IMG/VR virus record: IMGVR_UViG_3300029288_000006
Coordinates: 28,275-92,274 of that record
Length of the DNA stretch: 64,000 bases
Direction: 5' to 3' (one strand)
Origin: a virus
Lineage: Duplodnaviria; Caudoviricetes
The translations under genes were made by a program, and so were the position numbers. Shown in pieces: positions 13,570-45,016 of the stretch (position 1 is its first letter; every line of letters starts with the position of its first letter). The notes under the pieces are model-generated. The model saw only the letters and a program-made list of their open reading frames with translations. It had not been told where the DNA came from and searched no databases.

Positions 13570-14667
13570 TTATGCCCCGATTATTCTTATAGCTCTTTCA
13601 ATTTGTTTTTTATATAGCTCATACATCTTTACATCAAACAATCCATGAATATCCATGTACCTTATTAAATATATATATCTCCAGGAATTAGAAAGAATAT
13701 ATTCACACAGTTCATTCCATACTAATTTTTCATCCATTGAATTAATAGTCTTAAAAAATACCAGATTTGAACCTTGCTTAATATAATTTGAAACAGCATC
13801 GCACATTTCAAAAGTAGCTAATACAGTTTTATATTTCAAAGAACCCCTGAATGATCGTATCTCTATTGTATTTGGGGTTACATTGGTAGATACATATTTC
13901 CCACCGATAGTTGGTTCACGTAACATATATAGTTTTGGTTTATATCTCATCCTATTAACATTAACAAATTGGGCATATGTACAATCATACCTTCTGGAAA
14001 ATATAGACATTTGACCTTTTAACAAATTAAACATATTAACAAATTTATGCATATCAATCGTACTAAAAAACAATTTATTAAGATGTATATGCAATCCACA
14101 ACATTTACCATCATGACTTACAAAACCACATCTTATAATATCCCCCAACAATTCACGCATGGGGAATTCTCTATGATAATATTCCAATGTACATGGATTG
14201 AATATCATCTCAAATCCAGAACATGTTCCATCGTGTTTGAAATATATTTTATTCCCATTGTTTGAATATTTTTTATATAAGACATTTACCGCATCTTCAA
14301 CAGAACATATATTATGATTCTTACAAAATGGACTTTCCCTGACTCTTGAAGTAGAATCTGTTTCTATTTCTGCCCCCATATACAATAAATTTGATGAAGA
14401 TTTATCACCAACTCTATCTAAATGAGTATCATAGAAACTGGGTCGAGGTTTATATGAATGATTATTTATACCATTCATCGCTCTTTCTGGTTTATTATTC
14501 CTGATAACACATTCGGGACAAATTGATCGGCCCCTATTGGAAATAAAATATTTACCACAGGTAGTACATTTTGCTCCCAATATAAGCAAACATGATGAAC
14601 AATAATTCACTCCATTTACCATAGTTATATTACTTTTTTCTTTACCACATATAAAACATTTTGCCAT
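13570..14667 (-). CDS. putative amidoligase (COOH-NH2 ligase superfamily) with N-terminal Cys clusters
   Basis: GAEIE, KHDG, GFEM, CGLHIH, TIEIRSF; adjacent to the GAT-II gene. Confidence 0.85.
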   Translation of the reverse strand: MAKCFICGKEKSNITMVNGVNYCSSCLLILGAKCTTCGKYFISNRGRSICPECVIRNNKPERAMNGINNHSYKPRPSFYDTHLDRVGDKSSSNLLYMGAEIETDSTSRVRESPFCKNHNICSVEDAVNVLYKKYSNNGNKIYFKHDGTCSGFEMIFNPCTLEYYHREFPMRELLGDIIRCGFVSHDGKCCGLHIHLNKLFFSTIDMHKFVNMFNLLKGQMSIFSRRYDCTYAQFVNVNRMRYKPKLYMLREPTIGGKYVSTNVTPNTIEIRSFRGSLKYKTVLATFEMCDAVSNYIKQGSNLVFFKTINSMDEKLVWNELCEYILSNSWRYIYLIRYMDIHGLFDVKMYELYKKQIERAIRIIGA

Positions 14668-15257: not shown

Positions 15258-15608
15258 TTACATGTAACTCTCTCCCCATTTTCTCAACTCCCTGTTAATT
15301 TGTTTTAACTTCTTTTTATTTCCAATAAACTTGTAAAATATTTCTTTCTTATGTGTTACAATATCTTCGGAGATTTTATTCCCGGATTTTTTTATTTTCT
15401 TATGAACATTACACACAGTTACAACAGTATTTTTAGCAACATCAAATACCCATCGTCTATTTTTATATTCATATACAACGGTATTCCTAACATCATCAAA
15501 CTTAATGAAGTTACCCATCAATCTTGCATCAGTAGCTTCATCCCTGATATTATTTATACCATTAAATCTTTCATACGCTCTATTAATTGCATGTCTCATT
15601 ATGTTCAT
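15258..15608 (-). CDS. hypothetical protein (HA..RA.ERF motif, possibly RelE/DUF4258-like fold)
   Basis: Motif resemblance only. Confidence 0.4.
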   Translation of the reverse strand: MNIMRHAINRAYERFNGINNIRDEATDARLMGNFIKFDDVRNTVVYEYKNRRWVFDVAKNTVVTVCNVHKKIKKSGNKISEDIVTHKKEIFYKFIGNKKKLKQINRELRKWGESYM

Positions 15609-15789
15609 GGCGAATTTACCTTAACTTTATTTGTAATCATATTTAATCTCTGTTTGCTTCTCCATTCAGGAGGTGAACTTTTATGAACAAAATAAATACA
15701 GTTACCAGATTCACTCGGAACTATTTTATGATCACACTCATGTTCTAAATCACAACTAGAACATGAAAATTTAAGTTTAACTACATTAC

Positions 15790-16086
15790 TCATAAGATAA
15801 TTTCTCCCACTTCATTATTATATTCTTCTATAGTTTTAATCACTTTATAAATATAATTAGCTGATACATGGAACTGCCGGTCATCCATATCAGTGTCAGA
15901 ACCCCTGACAAATAGTTCATCACTATCTTCACATATATCGGGAAATGAAAAACTACATAAGGAAACTCCATTAGATGCATGAAAATAATCATTGCCCCGG
16001 TAGAAATCACAGCATCTTGAATCCTGATGAGTAATAAAAAAAAGTAATACATCACAATCAACTTGTATAATCTTATATTTTATCAT
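15790..16086 (-). CDS. MI[KR]Y tandem-array paralog 8
   Basis: MIKY..Q, ITHQ, FHASNG, LFVRG, IEEYN. Confidence 0.85.
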   Translation of the reverse strand: MIKYKIIQVDCDVLLFFITHQDSRCCDFYRGNDYFHASNGVSLCSFSFPDICEDSDELFVRGSDTDMDDRQFHVSANYIYKVIKTIEEYNNEVGEIIL

Positions 16087-16472
16087 AATCCCACGCGATA
16101 CTTTATATGTTCATTATACTCATCAATCGCACTAACTATTTTATAAATATAAGAAATGGATATTGTCATAATACAATTATCCATTCCCTTATTCGATCCC
16201 ATTGTATATAACGTATTATATTCTATATCAAAATCTGGATGTGAACAACTAATCAATTGCAATCCATTAGACGCTGTAAAGCGATCATGAAAAATATTAG
16301 ACTTACAATAAAAACTAGACCCCCTAAAATCTTGATGGGTAATAACAAAAATAATTTTATCTTTACTATCTATATCGTGTTTCTGACGAGTAGAAAGAGC
16401 ATCAACATTCCGCTCCAATAAACCCACAATATACTGATCCTTATATGATTGGAATATCCTATATCTAATCAT
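16083..16472 (-). CDS. MI[KR]Y tandem-array paralog 7 (about 25-aa insertion)
   Basis: MIRY..Q, ITHQ, FTASNG, LYTMG, IDEYN. Confidence 0.85.
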   Translation of the reverse strand: MIRYRIFQSYKDQYIVGLLERNVDALSTRQKHDIDSKDKIIFVITHQDFRGSSFYCKSNIFHDRFTASNGLQLISCSHPDFDIEYNTLYTMGSNKGMDNCIMTISISYIYKIVSAIDEYNEHIKYRVGL

Positions 16473-16724
16473 TTATGAAATCATCCTATCTATTGTACTT
16501 TTATTATACTCTTCAATTGCGTTGATCACTGTATTTATCTGATCAATGCTTATATTTAACCAGTCAAAATATTTGTTATCTAATCCATTGGATGCGATAA
16601 ATGAACTGTGATAATATCCTGAACTGTCTTTAAAAAATTCTCCACGTATAAAGTATTGTTCGGTAATTTGGAATTTTACATATTGATTGGATGAAATAAA
16701 CTGAATTATTTTATACTTAATCAT
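16473..16724 (-). CDS. MI[KR]Y tandem-array paralog 6 (internally deleted)
   Basis: MIKY, ITEQ, FIASNG, IEEYN; lacks the S...P/LYxRG block. Confidence 0.8.
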   Translation of the reverse strand: MIKYKIIQFISSNQYVKFQITEQYFIRGEFFKDSSGYYHSSFIASNGLDNKYFDWLNISIDQINTVINAIEEYNKSTIDRMIS

Positions 16725-17020
16725 ACATCTCTCACCTTATCATTATATTCATTAATCGCATTTATTACGGAATATATATGAATAATAGGAATAATTATCA
16801 TATAATTATATTTATCCACCTGTCTACCTCTCGTAAATAATATACGATGACCACTAGAACTCCATGATGGGTATGCTTCACTAGCTAAAATCATTCCGTC
16901 TGATGCACGAAATTCGCTCATACCATGATAAAAATTATAACAAACATCATCTTGATATGTGATAGTCATGTATATACAATGTGGAAAAGCTAAATCCTGA
17001 GTTATTTTATATCTTATCAT
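16721..17020 (-). CDS. MI[KR]Y tandem-array paralog 5
   Basis: MIRY, ITYQ, FRASDG, LFTRG, INEYN. Confidence 0.85.
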   Translation of the reverse strand: MIRYKITQDLAFPHCIYMTITYQDDVCYNFYHGMSEFRASDGMILASEAYPSWSSSGHRILFTRGRQVDKYNYMIIIPIIHIYSVINAINEYNDKVRDV

Positions 17021-17023
17021 ATA

Positions 17024-17299
17024 TCATTCCATCTCATTTAATAAATTTAATGTTGTAAGAACTCTGTAAATACATCCTATTGGTACTACCAGTGGACTAT
17101 GATTGAGATGATAATTGTTTCCCCTAATATATAATATACCAGCACCGGGTTGCAACTCTGGATGGTCTACAGAATAAACATAAAAATCCCCAACTCTACT
17201 GCCATTTAGTTTATATAATTCTTTCGACTGGTAGGTTATTTCTATATGAATAGTCTTAGAACTAATCTGTGTAACCCCATATCTGATCATAATTATCAC
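17024..17299 (-). CDS. MI[KR]Y tandem-array paralog 4
   Basis: MIRY, ITYQ, YS..HP, LYIRG, VPI..IYRV. Confidence 0.8.
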   Translation of the reverse strand: MIIMIRYGVTQISSKTIHIEITYQSKELYKLNGSRVGDFYVYSVDHPELQPGAGILYIRGNNYHLNHSPLVVPIGCIYRVLTTLNLLNEME

Positions 17300-17604
17300 T
17301 CCAAATTGCTAAAATTATTTAGGGATTCAAGCGCACAAATTACTCTATATATGAATTGTATTGGTATTCTTATATTAGTATGATCCATAGATTTATCCGA
17401 ACCGCTCAAGAATAATTTTATAACCTCTCCAATAATTGTGGAATAACTTATGAATGATGGATATTGTACTGAATATATAAATACACCATTTAATTCTTGT
17501 CCATAGTTGCCACATAGATTATATAAGTCATAAGATTGTTCGGTAATCTGCAACCATACTGCACTTTTGTTTGGGGATTTTTGTCTTATAATATATTTTA
17601 TCAT
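17296..17604 (-). CDS. MI[KR]Y tandem-array paralog 3
   Basis: MIKY, ITEQ, LNG..YS..YP, LFLSG, IPI..IYRV. Confidence 0.8.
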   Translation of the reverse strand: MIKYIIRQKSPNKSAVWLQITEQSYDLYNLCGNYGQELNGVFIYSVQYPSFISYSTIIGEVIKLFLSGSDKSMDHTNIRIPIQFIYRVICALESLNNFSNLE

Positions 17605-17903
17605 AAACTATTAACCCTAATATTATTATACTCTTCAATTGCATTTATTATACCATTAATATAAATAACAGGGATACGAATTATATAATCATCTTTACTC
17701 CAATCTATCCCCCGCACATACAATATTGGTGCTACGAGTGATGAATCATGTGCCGGGTATGATTCGCTTGTCAGGTAAACTCCATTAGAAGCATGAAATA
17801 CACGGCCATAATAAAAATCAATTCCCCTATAAGACTGATGTGTGATCATGAAACATATATAATTATCAAACTTAGAGTCCTGTGTTATCCTATACTTAAT
17901 CAT
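17601..17903 (-). CDS. MI[KR]Y tandem-array paralog 2
   Basis: MIKY, ITHQ, FHASNG, LYVRG, IEEYN. Confidence 0.85.
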   Translation of the reverse strand: MIKYRITQDSKFDNYICFMITHQSYRGIDFYYGRVFHASNGVYLTSESYPAHDSSLVAPILYVRGIDWSKDDYIIRIPVIYINGIINAIEEYNNIRVNSL

Positions 17904-17906
17904 ATG

Positions 17907-18203
17907 TCATCCGATCTCACAATTATATTCATCAATTGCGAAAATCACATTATATATATATACGATTGGGATGCGTAATCTATAATTATTTTTATCAAAT
18001 GCATTTCCCCTTACATATAATGTATTATGGGAATATATACTAAATTCAGGGTACATTTCACTTGCTAATTCAAATCCATTTGATGCAGTAAATGTACGGC
18101 TACTACCATCTATCCCAAAATATATACCAATTTTATCTTGGCGTGTAACAGTAAAATTTATATAACTAGAACCAGAACTTTGTTTTATACTATACTTAAT
18201 CAT
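17907..18203 (-). CDS. MI[KR]Y tandem-array paralog 1
   Basis: MIKY, VTRQ, FTASNG, LYVRG, IDEYN. Confidence 0.85.
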   Translation of the reverse strand: MIKYSIKQSSGSSYINFTVTRQDKIGIYFGIDGSSRTFTASNGFELASEMYPEFSIYSHNTLYVRGNAFDKNNYRLRIPIVYIYNVIFAIDEYNCEIG

Positions 18204-18245
18204 AATATACCTATCCTATTGCTTCGATTGGTTAGTTGTATTAAA

Positions 18246-18551
18246 TTAATCATTGTTACCAAAATTATATAAATTATACATAAGTATCAATTGTTTTGTA
18301 TCCACCCTATGAGCGCCAAACTCCTCGGCTAATTGTACCTTACCTTTCATTAGATCATAATGATGTATCCTGTGATCTTGAGACCATTCGCGTTTTAAGC
18401 CAATAAGTTTGGCAAAAGAATGTAATTCCTCATCCGAATTGGCAACTAGATGTTTCCCATCAGTATAAACGGCCATTATCTTACCCCTACCGTATCTAGA
18501 GTACCGACATAAAGTGTATCTTGTGCTCCGATAATATTTGTTGTCACCCAT
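18246..18551 (-). CDS. DUF4031-like protein (true start probably at MAVYTD)
   Basis: VYTD..HLVA..ELHSFA..IGLKREW.Q..HYDL. Confidence 0.75.
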   Translation of the reverse strand: MGDNKYYRSTRYTLCRYSRYGRGKIMAVYTDGKHLVANSDEELHSFAKLIGLKREWSQDHRIHHYDLMKGKVQLAEEFGAHRVDTKQLILMYNLYNFGNND

Positions 18552-18754
18552 CTATACTGGCTCATACCATCCGATCTTTCAATCTCTCTTTGCATGATTT
18601 CTCCCCGCTTCCTTACCAGTTCCATTTGTTCTCGCGTGACCTTCCATTTTTCTTCTTCCGCGCTATAATCATACTGATACCACAATATTGAAATCCACAA
18701 TACAATTATCACAGAAATTACAGCGGGTATAATCCAATCTCTTTCACCTGACAT
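18476..18754 (-). CDS. small membrane-anchored protein
   Basis: N-terminal hydrophobic helix; GAGG RBS. Confidence 0.55.
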   Translation of the reverse strand: MSGERDWIIPAVISVIIVLWISILWYQYDYSAEEEKWKVTREQMELVRKRGEIMQREIERSDGMSQYRWVTTNIIGAQDTLYVGTLDTVGVR

Positions 18755-18966
18755 ATCATTTTCCTCTCTTACGCACTCCTTACCATATCCTGAGTTGAAA
18801 TATGAACCTAAAGGGGAACAATATTATTCCCATGAGTGTTGGCTGTTGTGATGTATGGTCGAACGGGCCAATACCTATATATGCAGCACTGGCAACGACC
18901 CATAGAACTACACAGCATATTAAATAAATGCCAATTCCTATGATTGCTTTCTTAATGACTTCCATC

Positions 18967-19467
18967 TCACTTTCCTTCCTTTTCGAGTTCGGCGCGGGCT
19001 TGGGTGATATATTCCATATCCCACATAAATGTACGACCACTGGCTTCATTCGCTTTTCTTAAAGCAGCCTTTAATACAAGTTCGAAGTGTTGAGATTGGT
19101 TGTGTTTCTCAACCGCCTCATCCCGCTCGGCTTCCATTAACCCAAGTTTGCGACCTATTGTTCCAATTTCGCGTATTGTCTCATCACGCTCAGCCCGAAG
19201 TCTTACAATGATCGCCCCTGCATCTTCAACAGCCTTATCTGTTCCGTGCTTGCCCTGATAGTGACCACCGTCTCTGTGTATGTTGGCGAGGAGTTCACCC
19301 AAGTGAAGTTCCGCTTTCTTTGCGCGCTCGGTCTGCGCACTACACTCAGATTCGATGGTCTCGATGGTGGTACGGAGCCGATCAACGCACCCATCAATCT
19401 CGTCGGGATGTGCAATATGACCGATAAAATGTTCTATGATCTCAAACTCATTCATCAGCTCGCTCAT
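18967..19467 (-). CDS. coiled-coil phage protein (IHRDGGHY motif)
   Basis: Coupled to the MazG-like gene; motif recurrent in phage hypothetical proteins. Confidence 0.6.
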   Translation of the reverse strand: MSELMNEFEIIEHFIGHIAHPDEIDGCVDRLRTTIETIESECSAQTERAKKAELHLGELLANIHRDGGHYQGKHGTDKAVEDAGAIIVRLRAERDETIREIGTIGRKLGLMEAERDEAVEKHNQSQHFELVLKAALRKANEASGRTFMWDMEYITQARAELEKEGK

Positions 19468-19799
19468 GGTTTCCTCTCTATACTTCGGGCACTGTCAAAC
19501 CCATCTGGGTATCGCTCGCGCAGTTTTTTGACATTCATCTCAGCAATTTCGTCGAGAGTGAGGTTTATTGCTTTCGCCGCCTGTGCGAGATACCAAAGCA
19601 CATCTCCGAGTTCATGAGCTATCTTGTCTTTTGAAAGTTCATGTCCCTGTGCTGCCCACTTCTTGATATGGTCTGCGATTTCACCGCTTTCACCACATAA
19701 TCCCAAAGAGCACACAATGATTGATACATCAGGCGAGGAGGTGCGATTTGTTTCTGATTGATATTCGTTAAATGTCATGGTTTCCTCATTTCCCCACAT
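19464..19799 (-). CDS. MazG-like nucleotide pyrophosphohydrolase
   Basis: GLCGESGEIAD, HELGDVLWY, N..KL..RYPDGF. Confidence 0.9.
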   Translation of the reverse strand: MWGNEETMTFNEYQSETNRTSSPDVSIIVCSLGLCGESGEIADHIKKWAAQGHELSKDKIAHELGDVLWYLAQAAKAINLTLDEIAEMNVKKLRERYPDGFDSARSIERKP

Positions 19800-20005
19800 G
19801 GAGCGTTGTCGAATGGAACCTCTGGATACACATGACCAACATAGATTGTTCTAAACCAACGTATCACAAAATTGGGTTGAGGTGGAAAACGGACACACCA
19901 ACCATATGCACTATCAAGCATTTGATAATACTTACAACTTTCACAACAATTACCTTTTTGTCCCTCTGGATACATTATCATGCTGATTCCCTCATTTCTT
20001 GTCAT
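19775..20005 (-). CDS. small Cys-rich protein (CESCKYY..GWCVRFPP)
   Basis: Common phage C..C.Y...C.R.PP motif. Confidence 0.55.
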   Translation of the reverse strand: MTRNEGISMIMYPEGQKGNCCESCKYYQMLDSAYGWCVRFPPQPNFVIRWFRTIYVGHVYPEVPFDNAPCGEMRKP

Positions 20006-20720
20006 CGAAGGGTTTAATGGGGATGTGATTGTCCGCGCAGAATTTACGGATAACTGCTATCGTGTTTTCCTCATAGAATCTTTGCCATATCCCCGCAGGA
20101 AAATCCAGTCGTACAAAACCCTGCTTTCCCTCACTTGCGCTCACCTTTCCAACACCCGGAACATAAACAACCCACTTGTCTGGTTCTATTGGCGAAAGAT
20201 TCTCGCGAGAAGTCCAATAACAGAAATTATCATTATATCGTACTTTAATATTAAATTCGGTTTTGTGGTCATCTTCTATTATTGTAACATTTCCTGGGGT
20301 ACGGTAACCCCCACCTGCACCTACCCCATCCCACCAACAAGTTTCTCCGACCTTTGGTTCCCACTTCGGGACGACGCGGAGAATCCAGACCGACCTTTGT
20401 GCACTATCCCAACCAAATGTAATTACTGTACCATGAGTATAAGTACTTTCAGCTACATGCCACTCTTGTTTTGAAGCTGGAACGGTTCTATATTCACCAG
20501 TATATTCAAAGCGCAATCCTTTTGCTTCCTCGGTATGTTTGATGTCTGTCAATTCCCAAATTGGTAGATTACATGGCTCACCTGCGCAATGCTCCGGTTT
20601 GGGTGCTGGCTTGGTAGCCGGTCTCTGCCGTTCCGTATATACCTCATTCGCAATCCTTCTGATGCGCCTGTCAAGTCTCGATGTGGTGCTCATCTCATTT
20701 CTCCTTTCACCTGTTCCCAT
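19992..20720 (-). CDS. hypothetical protein, paralog of 20690-21520
   Basis: Shares GEPCNLPI and WILR.VP..WEPKVG blocks with 20690-21520. Confidence 0.7.
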   Translation of the reverse strand: MGTGERRNEMSTTSRLDRRIRRIANEVYTERQRPATKPAPKPEHCAGEPCNLPIWELTDIKHTEEAKGLRFEYTGEYRTVPASKQEWHVAESTYTHGTVITFGWDSAQRSVWILRVVPKWEPKVGETCWWDGVGAGGGYRTPGNVTIIEDDHKTEFNIKVRYNDNFCYWTSRENLSPIEPDKWVVYVPGVGKVSASEGKQGFVRLDFPAGIWQRFYEENTIAVIRKFCADNHIPIKPFDDKK

Positions 20721-21520
20721 GCCCCAAACGGCAATATAGGAACCTTGCCTTCGAGGACGGAGCGGATGAGATTGTATTCAAGATGTACTGTGTAATAAGT
20801 CATACCCCCGTCTGGGTAAACAATTACCAAGTCACCATCGTCATCCTCATGCGCCAGCAACATCATCCCCGCGACTTCCCCATAGCAGTCATCGAGGGTG
20901 AGACGACGGAGATAATTTGGCATAATCGCAGTTACTACATTATTCATAAAACGTACACATATTGCTCCTTCTCGCAGTTCACTCTGGAATATCCCCACTG
21001 TTTTAGGGTCTACTATTACCGCAATACCCTTAACGAATATATCTTCACACCATACCCACATCCCCACTTTCGGCTCCCATTCCGGCTTGATGGGAACGGC
21101 GCGGAGAATCCATGCTTTAGATGATGGATGATAGTCATCGTATATCGTGCGATAAACTGCACTATCATCCCCATTATTGGTTAAATCCCGTGACTTATAA
21201 AAAGTAGTAGGATGGTCATATACAAAATGATGTGTCTTTGCTAATTTTTGGCAACTATCGTGGATCGGCAAATTACATGGCTCGCCGTCGTAGTGTCGCC
21301 ATGCCCGCTCCACTCGCTCCTGCTCCATCTTCGCTTCGGGAGTCATGGGCATTGGTTCCGTTGTTATCCCTTCCGAGTACACTTCGGCTTCTGCCAATGC
21401 ATTTGCAAGTTCAACTCGCGCAAATGCCAGCCCAACTTCCTTAACACGTGCATCAAATTCATTACAGATTGACTTTACTCGCTTAATCAAATTTGTTTCA
21501 ATTCGCTTAGTCATATTCAT
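20690..21520 (-). CDS. hypothetical protein, paralog of 19992-20720
   Basis: Shares GEPCNLPI and WILR.VP..WEPKVG blocks with 19992-20720. Confidence 0.7.
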   Translation of the reverse strand: MNMTKRIETNLIKRVKSICNEFDARVKEVGLAFARVELANALAEAEVYSEGITTEPMPMTPEAKMEQERVERAWRHYDGEPCNLPIHDSCQKLAKTHHFVYDHPTTFYKSRDLTNNGDDSAVYRTIYDDYHPSSKAWILRAVPIKPEWEPKVGMWVWCEDIFVKGIAVIVDPKTVGIFQSELREGAICVRFMNNVVTAIMPNYLRRLTLDDCYGEVAGMMLLAHEDDDGDLVIVYPDGGMTYYTVHLEYNLIRSVLEGKVPILPFGAWEQVKGEMR

Positions 21521-21789
21521 TCCAATTCTTCCCCATCATTTATTGTTGGAAACATTGACTTGTATGATCATTTCCAGACTTGTAACATTAATTTATCGTA
21601 ACTATACTTTTCATACTCTTCCCACGGTTGTCTCCAATAATTTATACGGCCACTGTTTATTATTTTTCTTACCCTTTTATCTGTAATTTCAATAGCATGT
21701 GTGAAATTTTTGTCTACAAGATTGTTCCTAATCCACATGATAATTGTGCACAGCAATGCGGTTATAAAGAAACACTTTGTAATTATCAT
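21517..21789 (-). pseudogene. small membrane-anchored ORF with an in-frame TGA at 21568-21570
   Basis: The frame stays open for 16 codons past the TGA and ends in an ATGA overlap with the next gene. Confidence 0.45.
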
Positions 21790-22094
21790 TTCAACTCCTC
21801 CCTTGCGGCTTTCATGGCCGCGTCTTTGCGAGCGGTGATGCAGATAGTACCATCGGAGGGACGATATTCGCATTCATTGCATCCCAGGTCATTATGATGC
21901 AAGCATAATTGTGGAGCCATTAACTCTGCCAGCTTCTCCATCGCCTTGTCGCGGACGGCGAGTTCATCTTTTAGGTTTCCGGCGAGATTAGCGAGCCTGT
22001 CACGGATGGTGCTTAGCCTACCATGAGCAGTATGATAGTAATCGCTATTCAACATACTATCTATCGCTGCCAGTACAAATGTTTCGTCGGTCAT
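21786..22094 (-). CDS. hypothetical protein
   Basis: Co-oriented ORF; ATGA-coupled to the downstream gene. Confidence 0.55.
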   Translation of the reverse strand: MTDETFVLAAIDSMLNSDYYHTAHGRLSTIRDRLANLAGNLKDELAVRDKAMEKLAELMAPQLCLHHNDLGCNECEYRPSDGTICITARKDAAMKAAREELK

Positions 22095-22654: not shown

Positions 22655-22673
22655 ATTAGTCTCCCTTCATTAG

Positions 22674-22747
22674 TGACTCCGGAGGGACTCGAACCATCAA
22701 TCACAGAATTGAAAGTCCCGTGGCTTAACCAATTCGCCTACGGAGTC
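22674..22747 (-). tRNA. tRNA-Glu(UUC)
   Basis: Acceptor GACTCCG/CGGAGTC, D arm GGC..TGG..GCC, anticodon loop CT-TTC-AA, T loop TTCGAGT; CCA not encoded. Confidence 0.88.
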
Positions 22748-41501: not shown

Positions 41502-41969
41502 TTGGAATTAAAATGGAGATACAATATGTCAAAGGATATAGTGGTGTACAGATACAAGAAAATGTTAGAATGTTTTGAAGATTTTTGGCGCTCATCATCT
41601 GGAGATTCGTTAGATAATAGTTACTGGACGTATATACATCGTGATAGAATTGAAAGAATTGACGGTAGTTTTAATAGTAATATAAGTAATAATATAAAAT
41701 TATGGATTGATGCACATACATTTAATTGTTGGGTGTGGGTTGATACAAATAAGTCACAGTTGAATATATGGTTAAACGATAAATGTACACGGGATGAAGC
41801 AATAAAAGAAATTAAACCAATACTTAGAAATTTATATGTACCTAGATTTAAGAACAAGAGTGAAAGTGAGGAAGAAAAAAAATCAATGTTGGACGAATTT
41901 TATAATAAACTAGCTTTAAAATACGCCACCTTATCAATCTTAGATTATCATAAACGGGGTGATATATGA
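41502..41969 (+). CDS. hypothetical protein
   Basis: ATGA-coupled to nrdJ; likely start is MSKDIV. Confidence 0.6.
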   Translation: MELKWRYNMSKDIVVYRYKKMLECFEDFWRSSSGDSLDNSYWTYIHRDRIERIDGSFNSNISNNIKLWIDAHTFNCWVWVDTNKSQLNIWLNDKCTRDEAIKEIKPILRNLYVPRFKNKSESEEEKKSMLDEFYNKLALKYATLSILDYHKRGDI

Positions 41970-44900
41970 ATTCCACAGAGATTATTGAAAAGGTTTCACA
42001 AGATTCAATTCCGTTTGTTACTCCCGATCTTTCCCCCAATGCTATCACAGTTCTAAATACTCGCTATCTAAAAAAAGATGAGAATGGTACTCCCACTGAA
42101 ACTCCCACTGATATGTTTAAGCGGGTAGCTAAGACAATAGCTGATGTGGAATGTACATGGGGAACTGATATAGCATCTATAGAGAAATTATATAGATTGT
42201 TTTATTCAATGATGGCTAATCTGGACTTCCTACCAAACTCACCCACGCTCATGAATGCGGGACGGGAGTTGGGAAATCTGTCTGCCTGCTTCGTCCTCCC
42301 GATCGAGGACTCGATGGATTCTATTTTTGAGACGTTAAAGCAAACCGCGTTAATCCATAAGAGCGGCGGCGGCACGGGTTTTTCTTTTTCTTCTCTTAGG
42401 TCGAGCGGCGATTGTGTTAAGAGTTCCCACGGCGTTGCCAGTGGACCAATTTCTTTTATGGAGATTTATGATAAAGCCACAGAGACAGTTAAGCAAGGCG
42501 GTACGAGACGTGGAGCCAACATGGGTATGTTGCGAGTTAATCATCCCGATGCGAGACAATTTATTACATGCAAAAAAGATACCACAAGATTAACAAACTT
42601 TAATATTTCTATAGCTCTTACTGATGAATTTATGAAAGCTGTAGAATCTAATTCTACATATAATCTTATTAATCCTCATGGCAATAAGATAGTTAAAGAA
42701 GAGAACGCACGTGAGATATTTGATTTGATAGTGAAGAATGCCCATGAGACGGGTGAACCCGGTATTATATTTATAGATGAAGTAAACAGAAAGAATCCAA
42801 TAATAGGTAGTGTAATTTCTTCCACTAATCCATGTTGGACTGGTGATACTAAAATATGGACTATAAATGGGAAAATTCCAATATCAGAACTAGTTGGAAA
42901 AGAAGTTAAAGTATTAACACAATTATATGATGGAACATTGACATTTAGAACTATGCATAATATTAGAAAAACAAATGAATCATCTAAAATATTACGTGTA
43001 ATATTAGATAATGGAACATCATTATATTGTACTCCTAATCATAAATTATATTTAAAAAATGGTATAAAAATTGAAGCACAAAATTTATTGCCGGGATATA
43101 GACTTTCGAGTGTATATAGGTATAAGGCCAATACTAAGGGTTATATAAAATTAGATAATGGATATGAGCAAGTTTTAGAACATTGGGTAGTTGGTGATGG
43201 TAAATATAATAGGAGACCAGATTATCCAAATGAACATTGCCATCATATTGATGGTAATAAAAAAAATAATGTACCAGAAAATTTGGAATACATTAATGGG
43301 ACAATTCATAATAGTGCTAGAATGATGGGGAAAAATAATCCCATGTTTGGAATTTGGGATGCAAGAAATCCATTCTTTAATATTCCAGTTAATGGTTCTA
43401 ATAATCCAAATTATCGTCATGATATTTCAACCGAAGAAATTATCTCGATGCGAAAATCTGGTAAAACAATAAAAAGTATTTGTGATATATTGGGATGTTG
43501 TAAATATACAGTCCAGAAAAGAATTAGAGAATATAAACAATCCATTTGTAATCATAAGGTAATTAAAATTGAATTATTAGAGGATATGTATCCCGTATAT
43601 AATGGGGAAGTTGATGAAACTCATAGTTATTTTGTGGTAACTGGTACTAATGGTGCTATATTATCTTCCAATTGTGGCGAACAACCTCTGTTACCCTACG
43701 AATCATGTTGTCTTGGTTCTATTAATTTGTCCAATATGGTAAAAAATTATAATATTAATTGGAAGAAGTTGAGTGATGCAATCCATCTCTCTACTAGATT
43801 TTTGGATAATGTAATAGAAGCAAACAGATTCCCACTATCAATTATAGAACAGGAAACAAAGAAGAATCGCAAGATTGGTCTTGGTGTTATGGGATTTGCT
43901 GATATGTTAATTAAACTCGGTATTCCCTACGATTCGGACAAGGCGTTGGGAATAGCCGATACAGTTATGGGTTATATACAGGTAGAATCTCATGATGAAT
44001 CTGTGCATCTAGCGCAACTCCGTGGTGAATTTCCAAATTATAGGGATAGTATTTATTCTCATGGCAATGTGATATGTGTCTATATGCGCAATGCTACTAC
44101 CACAACTATCGCGCCTACCGGAACCCTTAGTATTATAGCTTCATGTTCGAGTGGAATAGAACCATTGTTCGCACTTGAATATACAAAGAACGTTATGGAC
44201 GGTAAGAAATTAATAGAAGTACATCCTGAACTGAAAAGAAACTTGGATTTTTATAAAGTTAATAATTTCAATGAGTTACCAGATACGATTAAATCAGTTT
44301 TCAGGGTTGCTCATGATATACCAGTAGAATGGCATGTTAAGATGCAAGCTGCATTCCAGAGATATACAGACAATGCGGTGAGCAAAACTATTAATTTCCC
44401 GTCTACCGCGACAACTGAAGATGTTAAGAAAGCATATCTATTAGCTTATGAGTTAGGATGTAAGGGTGTAACTATTTATCGAGATGGTTCGCGTAGTAAT
44501 CAGGTTCTTACTACTAATAAAGATGAGAGTAAGACAGAAAATAAGGAAGAAGAGGTTGTTGTTTCTAAACCCCGTTCTCGTCCCACCAAAACTTCCGGTA
44601 CAACAGAGAAAATTAAGACTGGTTGTGGTAATTTATATGTAACAGTCAACAATGATTCTGATGGTTTATGCGAAGTATTCTGTACAATGGGTAGATCGGG
44701 AGGTTGCACATCGAGCCAATCGGAAGCGATTAGTCGCCTCATATCCCTAGCATTGCGTAGCAAAATAGATTTATCAGATATAGTCCATCAACTCAAGGGT
44801 ATACGTTGCCCATCTCCAATTTGGCAAAATGGTAAACTTATATTGTCTTGCGCTGATGCAATAGCTAACTCACTCAATAGTCATATCGAAAGTACTATCG

Positions 44901-45016
44901 AATCCACAACCCACGATGATAGAAATAGTTTTCTGTGTCCCGAATGTGGTGAAGAAGTAGAAGTTTCCGAGGGTTGTTTTATATGTAAGCATTGTGGATA
45001 TTCTAAATGTCAGTGA
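41966..45016 (+). CDS. nrdJ: adenosylcobalamin-dependent class II ribonucleotide reductase, intein-containing
   Basis: [36 protein letters not shown]|CGEQ split by an intein, TIAPTGT, C-terminal TSCPD-like domain and Zn ribbon. Confidence 0.95.
42833..43672 (+). mobile_element. intein (280 aa) with HNH endonuclease, inserted at the RNR catalytic NPC motif
   Basis: Starts CWTGDT, block [27 protein letters not shown], ends SSN before Cys+1. Confidence 0.92.

Follow-up and report, generated by a model that had tools for sequence, protein, structure and literature searches.

The stretch of DNA examined here (the window, 64,000 nucleotides) comprises bases 28275-92274 of the 92,274-bp IMG/VR record IMGVR_UViG_3300029288_000006, which has direct terminal repeats and was judged 100% complete. 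Genes of a tailed phage are present, including those for a portal, a major head protein (phrog_267), a helicase and a ribonucleotide reductase. No cultured phage has a portal that exceeds 33% identity to this one. The subject of this report is a tandem array of eight small paralogous genes (W1 to W8) on the minus strand at 15790-18203. It belongs to a long leftward run of small genes for accessory functions and replication, at a distance from the head genes, which are on the other strand.

Organization of the array

The eight open reading frames (ORFs) stand back to back, with W1 at the upstream end (Table 1). All eight copies begin with MI[KR]Y.[IV].Q and carry an [IV]T.Q motif, and six of the eight (type A) also share ASNG or ASDG and EYN; copies 3 and 4 (type B) have neither and end in L..LN. 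Aligned over their full length to W1, the other copies are 32-47% identical. When a profile hidden Markov model (HMM) of the eight copies was run against the 92-kb genome, each copy was found again (E 5.5e-19 to 2.7e-38) and no further copy was detected. The eight genes are true paralogs, with homology far beyond chance. The initial annotation had described eight consecutive, closely packed paralogs with these motifs and had set copies 3 and 4 apart as a subgroup lacking ASNG and ending in L..LN; the ORFs, the alignment and the HMM scores (E 1e-19 to 1e-38) bear out the first of these statements, and the alignment bears out the second.

Neighbouring genes overlap by 4 nucleotides (nt) at junctions 2/3 (the start of W3 over the stop of W2), 5/6 and 7/8, abut with a 0-nt gap at 6/7 and are separated by 3 nt at 1/2 and 4/5. 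Junction 3/4 is either a 5-nt gap, if W4 starts at its ATG, or a 4-nt overlap, if it starts at an upstream GTG at 17299 and encodes 91 amino acids (aa). The ATG is preferred because the resulting MI[KR]Y start matches the other copies and a GGAG tract lies 12 nt upstream. A purine-rich tract resembling a Shine-Dalgarno (SD) sequence precedes every start in the array. Readthrough or frameshifting into one long protein, similar to the five-domain relative P0008 described below, was considered and rejected, since the genes do not share one reading frame, and every one of them comes with an SD-like tract, an ATG and a stop of its own. A scan for promoters and terminators gave no excess over shuffled sequences (promoter-like 42 versus 51, terminator-like 4 versus 4.1).

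No signal peptide or membrane segment was found in the array proteins. The isoelectric points (pI) of array copies range from 4.1 to 9.0, and 19 of the 22 array proteins of the three phages compared below fall at pI 4.1-7. Three copies depart individually from the common pattern. W6 is missing about 24 residues, corresponding to strands 4-5 of the model presented below, and its HMM match is split into two pieces with the weakest E-value of the eight; its ORF is intact and is identical in a second sample (L009), and the copy may be decaying or else represent a minimal variant. W7 carries an insertion of about 30 aa within the first beta hairpin, and W8 is the most acidic copy of the array (pI 4.4).

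The array is followed directly, in all three phage lineages, by a gene for a 62-aa protein rich in Cys and His, the start of which overlaps the stop of W8 by 4 nt. This protein is 79-87% identical among the three lineages and marks a sharp return of conservation. A search for a family match to it found none. Its gene might be functionally tied to the array.

Table 1. Coordinates of the array genes and of other features in the window (HMM E, E-value with the eight-copy profile)
Feature	Position	Strand	Length	Remarks
W1	17907..18203	-	98 aa	Type A (ASNG...EYN); HMM E 1.7e-37; copy modelled by AlphaFold2
W2	17601..17903	-	100 aa	Type A; HMM E 3.4e-37
W3	17296..17604	-	102 aa	Type B (without ASNG, ends ..ESLN); HMM E 1.1e-34
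W4	17024..17290	-	88 aa (ATG)	Type B; HMM E 9e-30
W5	16721..17020	-	99 aa	Type A (ASDG); HMM E 4.7e-38; closest relatives Sb3/R6
W6	16473..16724	-	83 aa	Type A, truncated, without strand 4-5 region; HMM E 5.5e-19
W7	16083..16472	-	129 aa	Type A; HMM E 3.5e-32; ortholog of R7 (L010)
W8	15790..16086	-	98 aa	Type A, last gene of the array; HMM E 2.7e-38
Cys/His-rich gene	15605..15793	-	62 aa	Directly after the array in all three phage lineages
Amidoligase-like gene	13570..14667	-	365 aa	N-terminal CxxC pairs, then amidoligase-like domain
DUF4031 gene	18246..18551			Within the block 18204-22000
MazG-like gene	19464..19799			Within the block 18204-22000
tRNA-Glu (UUC)	22673..22747	-		Sole tRNA in the window
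Ribonucleotide reductase, large subunit	41966..45016	+	1016 aa	Internal HNH endonuclease match

Predicted fold and distribution of the family

An AlphaFold2 model of W1, computed with an alignment of 84 sequences (A2), has a mean predicted local distance difference test score (pLDDT) of 95.9 and a predicted template modelling score (pTM) of 0.87. It places strands at residues 2-7, 14-22, 37-39, 45-47, 61-63 and 75-79, followed by a C-terminal helix at 80-97, so that the MI[KR]Y start forms strand 1 (residues 2-7, block pLDDT 95). The initial annotation had proposed a monomer model and a Foldseek search as a check, and the outcome is a confident model with no well-characterised match in the PDB (best E 1.6). 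An exhaustive VIA-align comparison with 48,161 chains reached a best Z of only 3.0, and fragments of PH-like folds came up repeatedly at Z 2-3; in the benchmark of this method, unmatched models typically reach a best Z of 7-8. None of the Foldseek candidates attained Z >= 2 when re-examined, and a profile search of PDB sequences gave no match better than E 0.16.

The same predicted fold was found in four phage-encoded proteins in BFVD (A0A8S5R5N7, A0A8S5T4K4, A0A8D9C9H8 and A0A8D9CC67), with TM-scores of 0.51-0.70 by query and E-values of 2e-3 to 6.5e-3. These proteins are only 13-15% identical to the array proteins and are unannotated; they extend the range of the fold and give no function. 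A two-domain relative, P0017, was also modelled, using an alignment of 23 two-domain sequences (A7) in place of a three-domain alignment (A6) in which only 2-5 sequences covered domain 1. Its model contains the same fold twice (pLDDT 92.2, pTM 0.75). Against the PDB, its best Foldseek E was 0.18, with POT1, PUR-alpha and telomere end-binding proteins in the top rows (E 0.18-1); the POT1 and PUR-alpha matches have TM-scores of at most 0.21 and root-mean-square deviations of 13-21 A, which is noise level, as are the chromo, Tudor and KOW pieces of about 40 residues retrieved by VIA-align (Z 3-4, best 4.0). As modelled, the fold has no detectable solved counterpart and is probably undescribed.

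Across the 84 aligned members, Q22, S48, P52, G66 and N94 are conserved at >=98%, and N42, G43, R65, D72, E92 and Y93 at 70-80%. The initial annotation had characterized the paralogs as a fixed scaffold with variable loops. This description is only partly true. Length variation clusters in three loops (after W1 positions 12, 23-36 and 54-61), but the contrast in sequence is weak: for the 22 array proteins, column entropy averages 2.01 bits in the strands and the helix and 2.28 bits in loops (Mann-Whitney p = 0.27). Conservation resides at about 20 motif positions and not in the whole scaffold. The codons of MI[KR]Y vary synonymously, indicating that conservation acts on the protein; for the same reason, the idea that MI[KR]Y is a DNA recombination motif is unsupported.

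Searches of Pfam-A, PHROGs v4, NCBIfam 20 and PADLOC-DB 2 with the eight copies, diverse relatives and 59 longer relatives returned no above-threshold match, in agreement with the initial annotation, which had recognised no named family. The best curated match was DUF6642 (E 4.5e-4, 20.3 bits versus a cut-off of 27), obtained only with the truncated copy W6. A match of P0008 to the Cap15 receptor (E 0.009, 16.8 bits versus a cut-off of 31.2, with no passing stretch) was rejected as chance. When 1.84 billion cluster representatives were searched exhaustively with a profile, 580 metagenomic relatives were recovered at E <= 1e-3, with 56 of them at E <= 1e-10. These are unannotated, the sole label being 'hypothetical protein' from a Bacteroidetes metagenome-assembled genome (MAG). 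No family member was found in 50,697 GenBank phage records by blastn and tblastn with the 6-kb region, W2, P0171 and P0008 as queries; a single match to P0171 covers only the C-terminal extension of that protein. An IMG/VR locus search with P0019 and with the 116-aa flanking protein found nothing, and a metagenome scan with the 125-aa flanking protein yielded a single 1.3-kb piece of the L010 phage and nothing more. Among 399 Clostridia species genomes, two contain a family member. In the ESM Atlas, the clusters nearest to P0171 are viral and unnamed, and nothing else was retrieved; with W1 as the query, SPRY and Neuralized rows at 0.84 were discarded as chance level, the Atlas's own model of W1 being poor. 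The neighbourhoods of family members that were read contain MazG, SSB, ArdA, a pentapeptide protein, NYN, DUF4031, Dam, Thy1 and an integrase. The family is undescribed and is mostly phage-borne, residing among accessory or early genes.

Domain counts from a profile scan of the fetched loci demonstrate that the family occurs as arrays, fusions and solo copies. For example, the L010 contig has at least nine genes, the SRR33452759 phage (overlapping contigs L019, L018 and L017) has nine, L012 has at least four in 1.3 kb, L013 and L014 have two adjacent genes each, and L020-L023 have one copy each. In L011, five domains are fused in one 658-aa protein (P0008), and P0009 and P0010 have four domains each. 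Multi-domain proteins with 2-5 domains account for about 40 of the best 150 of the 580 matches; their linkers are mostly about 0-15 aa, with some of 45-59 aa, and that of P0012 is visibly acidic. The existence of solo copies indicates that the module can work without paralogous partners, and multiplicity is a family trait that is not obligatory. The initial annotation had suggested an HMM search for copy-number variation: the loci examined show this diversity of forms, and copy number is eight versus nine among the three phage lineages compared below.

A subfamily of about 165 aa combines the domain with a conserved C-terminal extension (..W.Q.GD.Y.. then FGNFFRT.EEAEAALERVKKALKG), which has no Pfam match. 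It is found in L013 (8001-9066), L014 (8001-9009), L015, L022 and L023. Some members form adjacent pairs beside MazG, SSB and ArdA, at least one is in a Clostridia MAG, and one is near an integrase.

Evolution of the array and its flanks

The L009 sample contains the same phage, with 99.5-100% DNA identity and the same copies. True relatives of the window phage (W) are the L010 phage (R) and the SRR33452759 phage (S). In comparisons between W, R and S, the genes downstream of the array (62, 116, 125 and 365 aa) show 72-87% identity, and the downstream block is syntenic over 12 kb in the relatives. DNA homology between W and R ends exactly at the array border, at window position ~15795. Within the array, positional orthologs of S and R are 45-59% identical, compared with 77-87% for three downstream genes, and the best matches of the W copies in R and S are 34-46% identical (BLAST). 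Gene order also differs, being A,A,B,B,A,A,A,A in the window and B,B,B,B,C,R5-like,A,A,A in the two relatives, whose nine-gene arrays are collinear with each other and include types absent from the window. The contigs of the relatives (L009, L010, L012, L016, L017, L018 and L019) all begin or end inside the array or at its edge, and L009 has a run of Ns inside copy 1. These breaks hint that assembly may have been interrupted at the array by strain variation within the samples.

Nei-Gojobori estimates place the difference between array and flanks mainly in the protein sequence. Nonsynonymous divergence (dN) is 0.34-0.50 for array pairs and 0.06-0.17 for flank pairs, whereas synonymous divergence (dS) is comparable, at ~0.9-2.4 (one pair saturated) and ~0.4-1.3, respectively; array dN is thus ~3-6 times flank dN. 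Their ratio, omega, is ~0.2-0.5 for array pairs and 0.08-0.18 for flank pairs (0.27-0.29 for the 62-aa gene in W comparisons), values that are rough because dS is near saturation. They show that the array is of an age comparable to that of its flanks, and that it is under purifying selection with protein change several times faster. The initial annotation had asked for a dN/dS analysis, and both the omega values and the intact ORFs in three lineages indicate that the copies are not evolving neutrally.

In a maximum likelihood tree, the copies of W and R interleave (6 label changes, compared with a mean of 5.6 for shuffled labels). A single ortholog pair, W7-R7, is well supported (95/85), and a type B clade is common to all three phages. 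The interleaving and the shared type B clade imply that the duplications predate the split of these lineages. Tandem Repeats Finder detected no unit of ~300 nt in the array that would mark a recent duplication, and direct repeats are limited to patches of 15-51 nt at conserved motifs, with 62-95% identity. The copies are old, retained by selection and fast-evolving. On this point the tree and the small size of the DNA repeats sustain the initial annotation, which had spoken of old, retained duplications; its term 'gene accordion', if taken to mean that copies were gained and lost recently, is not supported, because the paralogs are ancient and number only eight or nine in the three lineages.

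Tandem multigene families that behave as genomic accordions are familiar in viruses, examples being K3L amplification in poxviruses, the multigene families (MGF) of African swine fever virus (ASFV) and the hyperplastic regions of T4-type phages. The array resembles them as a block of tandem paralogs in a variable region that evolves faster than core genes and presumably interacts with the host. It differs in having no recent amplification, a nearly stable copy number and paralogs that predate the split of the three lineages. A recent accordion of the poxvirus type, which would have tandem copies of high DNA identity in numbers that vary among close strains, was accordingly rejected, there being no ~300-nt period and the same copies in the near-identical strain of L009. 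The T4 internal proteins IPI, IPII and IPIII, which share an N-terminal capsid-targeting sequence and of which IPI* is an injected anti-restriction protein, offer another parallel, since they too are encoded by neighbouring small genes with a common short N-terminal motif at a polymorphic locus. In proteins of that type the leader is about 10 aa long, ends at a prohead-protease site and precedes bodies that are unrelated. A reading of the common start as a capsid-targeting leader was rejected, as the N-terminus is strand 1 of the predicted domain, homology extends over the full length and no conserved Glu (protease site) follows the motif.

Several features around the array were recorded in their own right. 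GC content rises from 29-30% in the array and the downstream genes to 41-45% immediately upstream (18204-22000), in a block that holds the DUF4031 and MazG-like genes and is poorly conserved, with only short, weak matches in L019 (3.2-6.4 kb). The jump in GC and the poor conservation suggest that a second variable, possibly imported island adjoins the array. Downstream, the 365-aa protein is 77% identical in a related phage; its amidoligase-like domain matches phrog_16683 (E 1e-25), with a sub-threshold match to Pfam Amidoligase_2. Elsewhere in the window, the HNH endonuclease match in the ribonucleotide reductase large subunit (phrog_59 and others) spans residues ~382-623 and suggests an intein or an inserted homing endonuclease.

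A candidate repertoire of binder modules

The organization of the array closely recalls the homogeneous polyimmunity loci of bacterial polymorphic toxin systems, which are uninterrupted arrays of distantly related paralogs of one small domain on one strand, such as those of the SUKH, Imm6, Imm11 and Imm33 families (Zhang et al. 2012, PMC3482391). Such loci have at least four tandem paralogs in the same orientation; here there are eight, uninterrupted, with overlaps or with gaps of at most 5 nt. As in such loci, related genomes vary in how many members they carry (eight versus nine) and of which types, and the same domain recurs as tandem repeats in single polypeptides (P0008, P0009, P0010 and the two-domain proteins), the counterpart of 'polyimmunity proteins'. 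However, the domains of polyimmunity loci belong to families linked to a toxin, either by a neighbouring toxin gene in some genomes or as a recognised Imm, SUKH or SuFu family; here, no Pfam Imm, SUKH or SuFu match was obtained with the window copies and more than 75 relatives, and no toxin domain is present in the neighbourhoods read. For these reasons we do not file the array as a member of the polyimmunity loci, and the likeness is one of organization alone. Polyimmunity loci are also found in bacterial chromosomes, whereas the array is in a lytic-type phage genome and its family is rare in bacterial genomes, as the Clostridia survey illustrates; its fold, moreover, has no detectable solved counterpart.

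With these differences in mind, we favour, tentatively and at somewhat less than an even chance, a reading of the array as a phage counterpart of a homogeneous polyimmunity locus, in which modular binders or inhibitors would be directed at host targets that vary. It would be a single-family 'poly-inhibitor' locus built from an undescribed domain of ~95 residues, with six strands capped by a C-terminal helix. Each gene would produce a small, soluble, independently folding cytoplasmic module, and the modules would be co-transcribed and translationally coupled. The shared core would hold the fold while the remaining surface and the three loops of variable length diverge quickly, and the resulting repertoire of binders could act on different variants of host proteins by neutralising or hijacking them, defence effectors or toxins being the most plausible. 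We infer protein binding by the modules, with defence or toxin proteins of the host as targets, and differences in specificity among the copies. The initial annotation had inferred a similar repertoire, for instance of anti-defence or sponge proteins, host-range effectors or hetero-oligomer subunits, and its interpretation is partly supported. A repertoire is favoured because the pattern of the array matches the description of polyimmunity clusters, which have been argued to concentrate functionally equivalent binders and not subunits of a complex (PMC3482391). The array outpaces its flanks in evolution, which is the behaviour expected of a conflict locus, and the spread of pI from 4.1 to 9.0 is as expected of diversified binders and not of a uniform DNA binder or DNA mimic.

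Several observations weigh against a repertoire of binders. No member of the family stands beside a toxin or defence gene in the neighbourhoods read, and the omega values on which the evolutionary argument draws are only rough. About ten polar or small positions are conserved, which could mean a common ligand or a catalytic site and not diversified surfaces. In addition, P0017 is predicted with a fixed arrangement of its two domains (pTM 0.75), which would also fit an oligomeric assembly.

This last observation leads to an alternative that we regard as unlikely, in which the paralogs are subunits of one hetero-oligomer (a pseudo-repeat ring, stack or filament) and the fused chains build the same assembly elsewhere. 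The near-zero linkers of many fused forms are consistent with such an assembly, and the scores of the P0017 model (pLDDT 92.2 along with its pTM) exceed the expectation for two freely jointed domains. The division into types A, B and C is conserved, two phages have nine-gene arrays in the same order, and tight translational coupling favours equimolar synthesis. On the other hand, the number of domains varies among the examined loci (1, 2, at least 4, 5, 8 and 9), solo copies exist, linkers reach 45-59 aa in some fusions, and the window array, one copy of which is truncated, differs in composition from those of its relatives. Evolution is usually slowed at subunit interfaces, but the array has 3-6 times the dN of its flanks. 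The persistence of polar positions across the 84 members (Q22, N42-G43, S48, R65-G66, D72 and E92-Y93-N94) has given rise to another view, which we rate as more doubtful still: that the domain is a small-molecule sponge, for instance for an immune-signal nucleotide, or a small enzyme, with the copies widening the range of ligands or the capacity. Known phage sponges are similar in size, and the one receptor hinted at by P0008, sub-threshold and rejected as chance level, is the cyclic-dinucleotide receptor barrel of Cap15. But type B copies, present in every array, are retained without ASNG and EY, and none of the residues typical of catalysis (H, C, K or D/E) is invariant. The A2 profile recovered no sponge or receptor at E <= 10 among PDB sequences, no solved fold was retrieved, and we know of no sponges that occur as paralog arrays.

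A role as a tandem nucleic-acid binder that targets DNA or RNA of the phage or the host, comparable to PUR repeats, the OB folds of POT1 and RPA, or chromo, Tudor and KOW barrels, appears very improbable. The leading structural matches of P0017, from both Foldseek and VIA-align, name such proteins, and both known classes act as tandem repeats; all of these matches, however, are at noise level, most copies are neutral to acidic, and the motifs contain no conserved basic patch. It can hardly be supposed, finally, that the array is a functionless remnant of duplicated ORFs drifting neutrally. Copy 6 is truncated, as a remnant might be, but seven of eight ORFs here and nine of nine in each relative are full length despite a dS of at least 0.9, omega is 0.2-0.5, and the motifs are conserved across 580 relatives, so that this explanation is largely refuted.

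Returning to the repertoire of binders, a bolder form of it can be put forward, which we consider possible but rather doubtful. Here the domain would be a new fold serving as a general inhibitor that can be rapidly retargeted, and arrays and fusions would constitute a phage 'polyimmunity' that counters families of host defence effectors by breadth; such a strategy, as doubtful as the rest of this proposal, would contrast with the use of single dedicated inhibitors. The organizational principle itself is already known. The model is very confident, unusually so for a family that matches nothing in the curated libraries, and no solved counterpart was detected, so that a fold new to the solved structures would probably emerge from experimental work; the arrayed and fused forms provide a ready comparison of multiplicity for breadth, avidity or assembly. 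If the modules are inhibitors, the family, with at least 580 unannotated representatives, would hold a large reserve of counter-defence or host-takeover proteins that has yet to be exploited, and it would offer a natural example of a small scaffold that is quickly retargeted by evolution.

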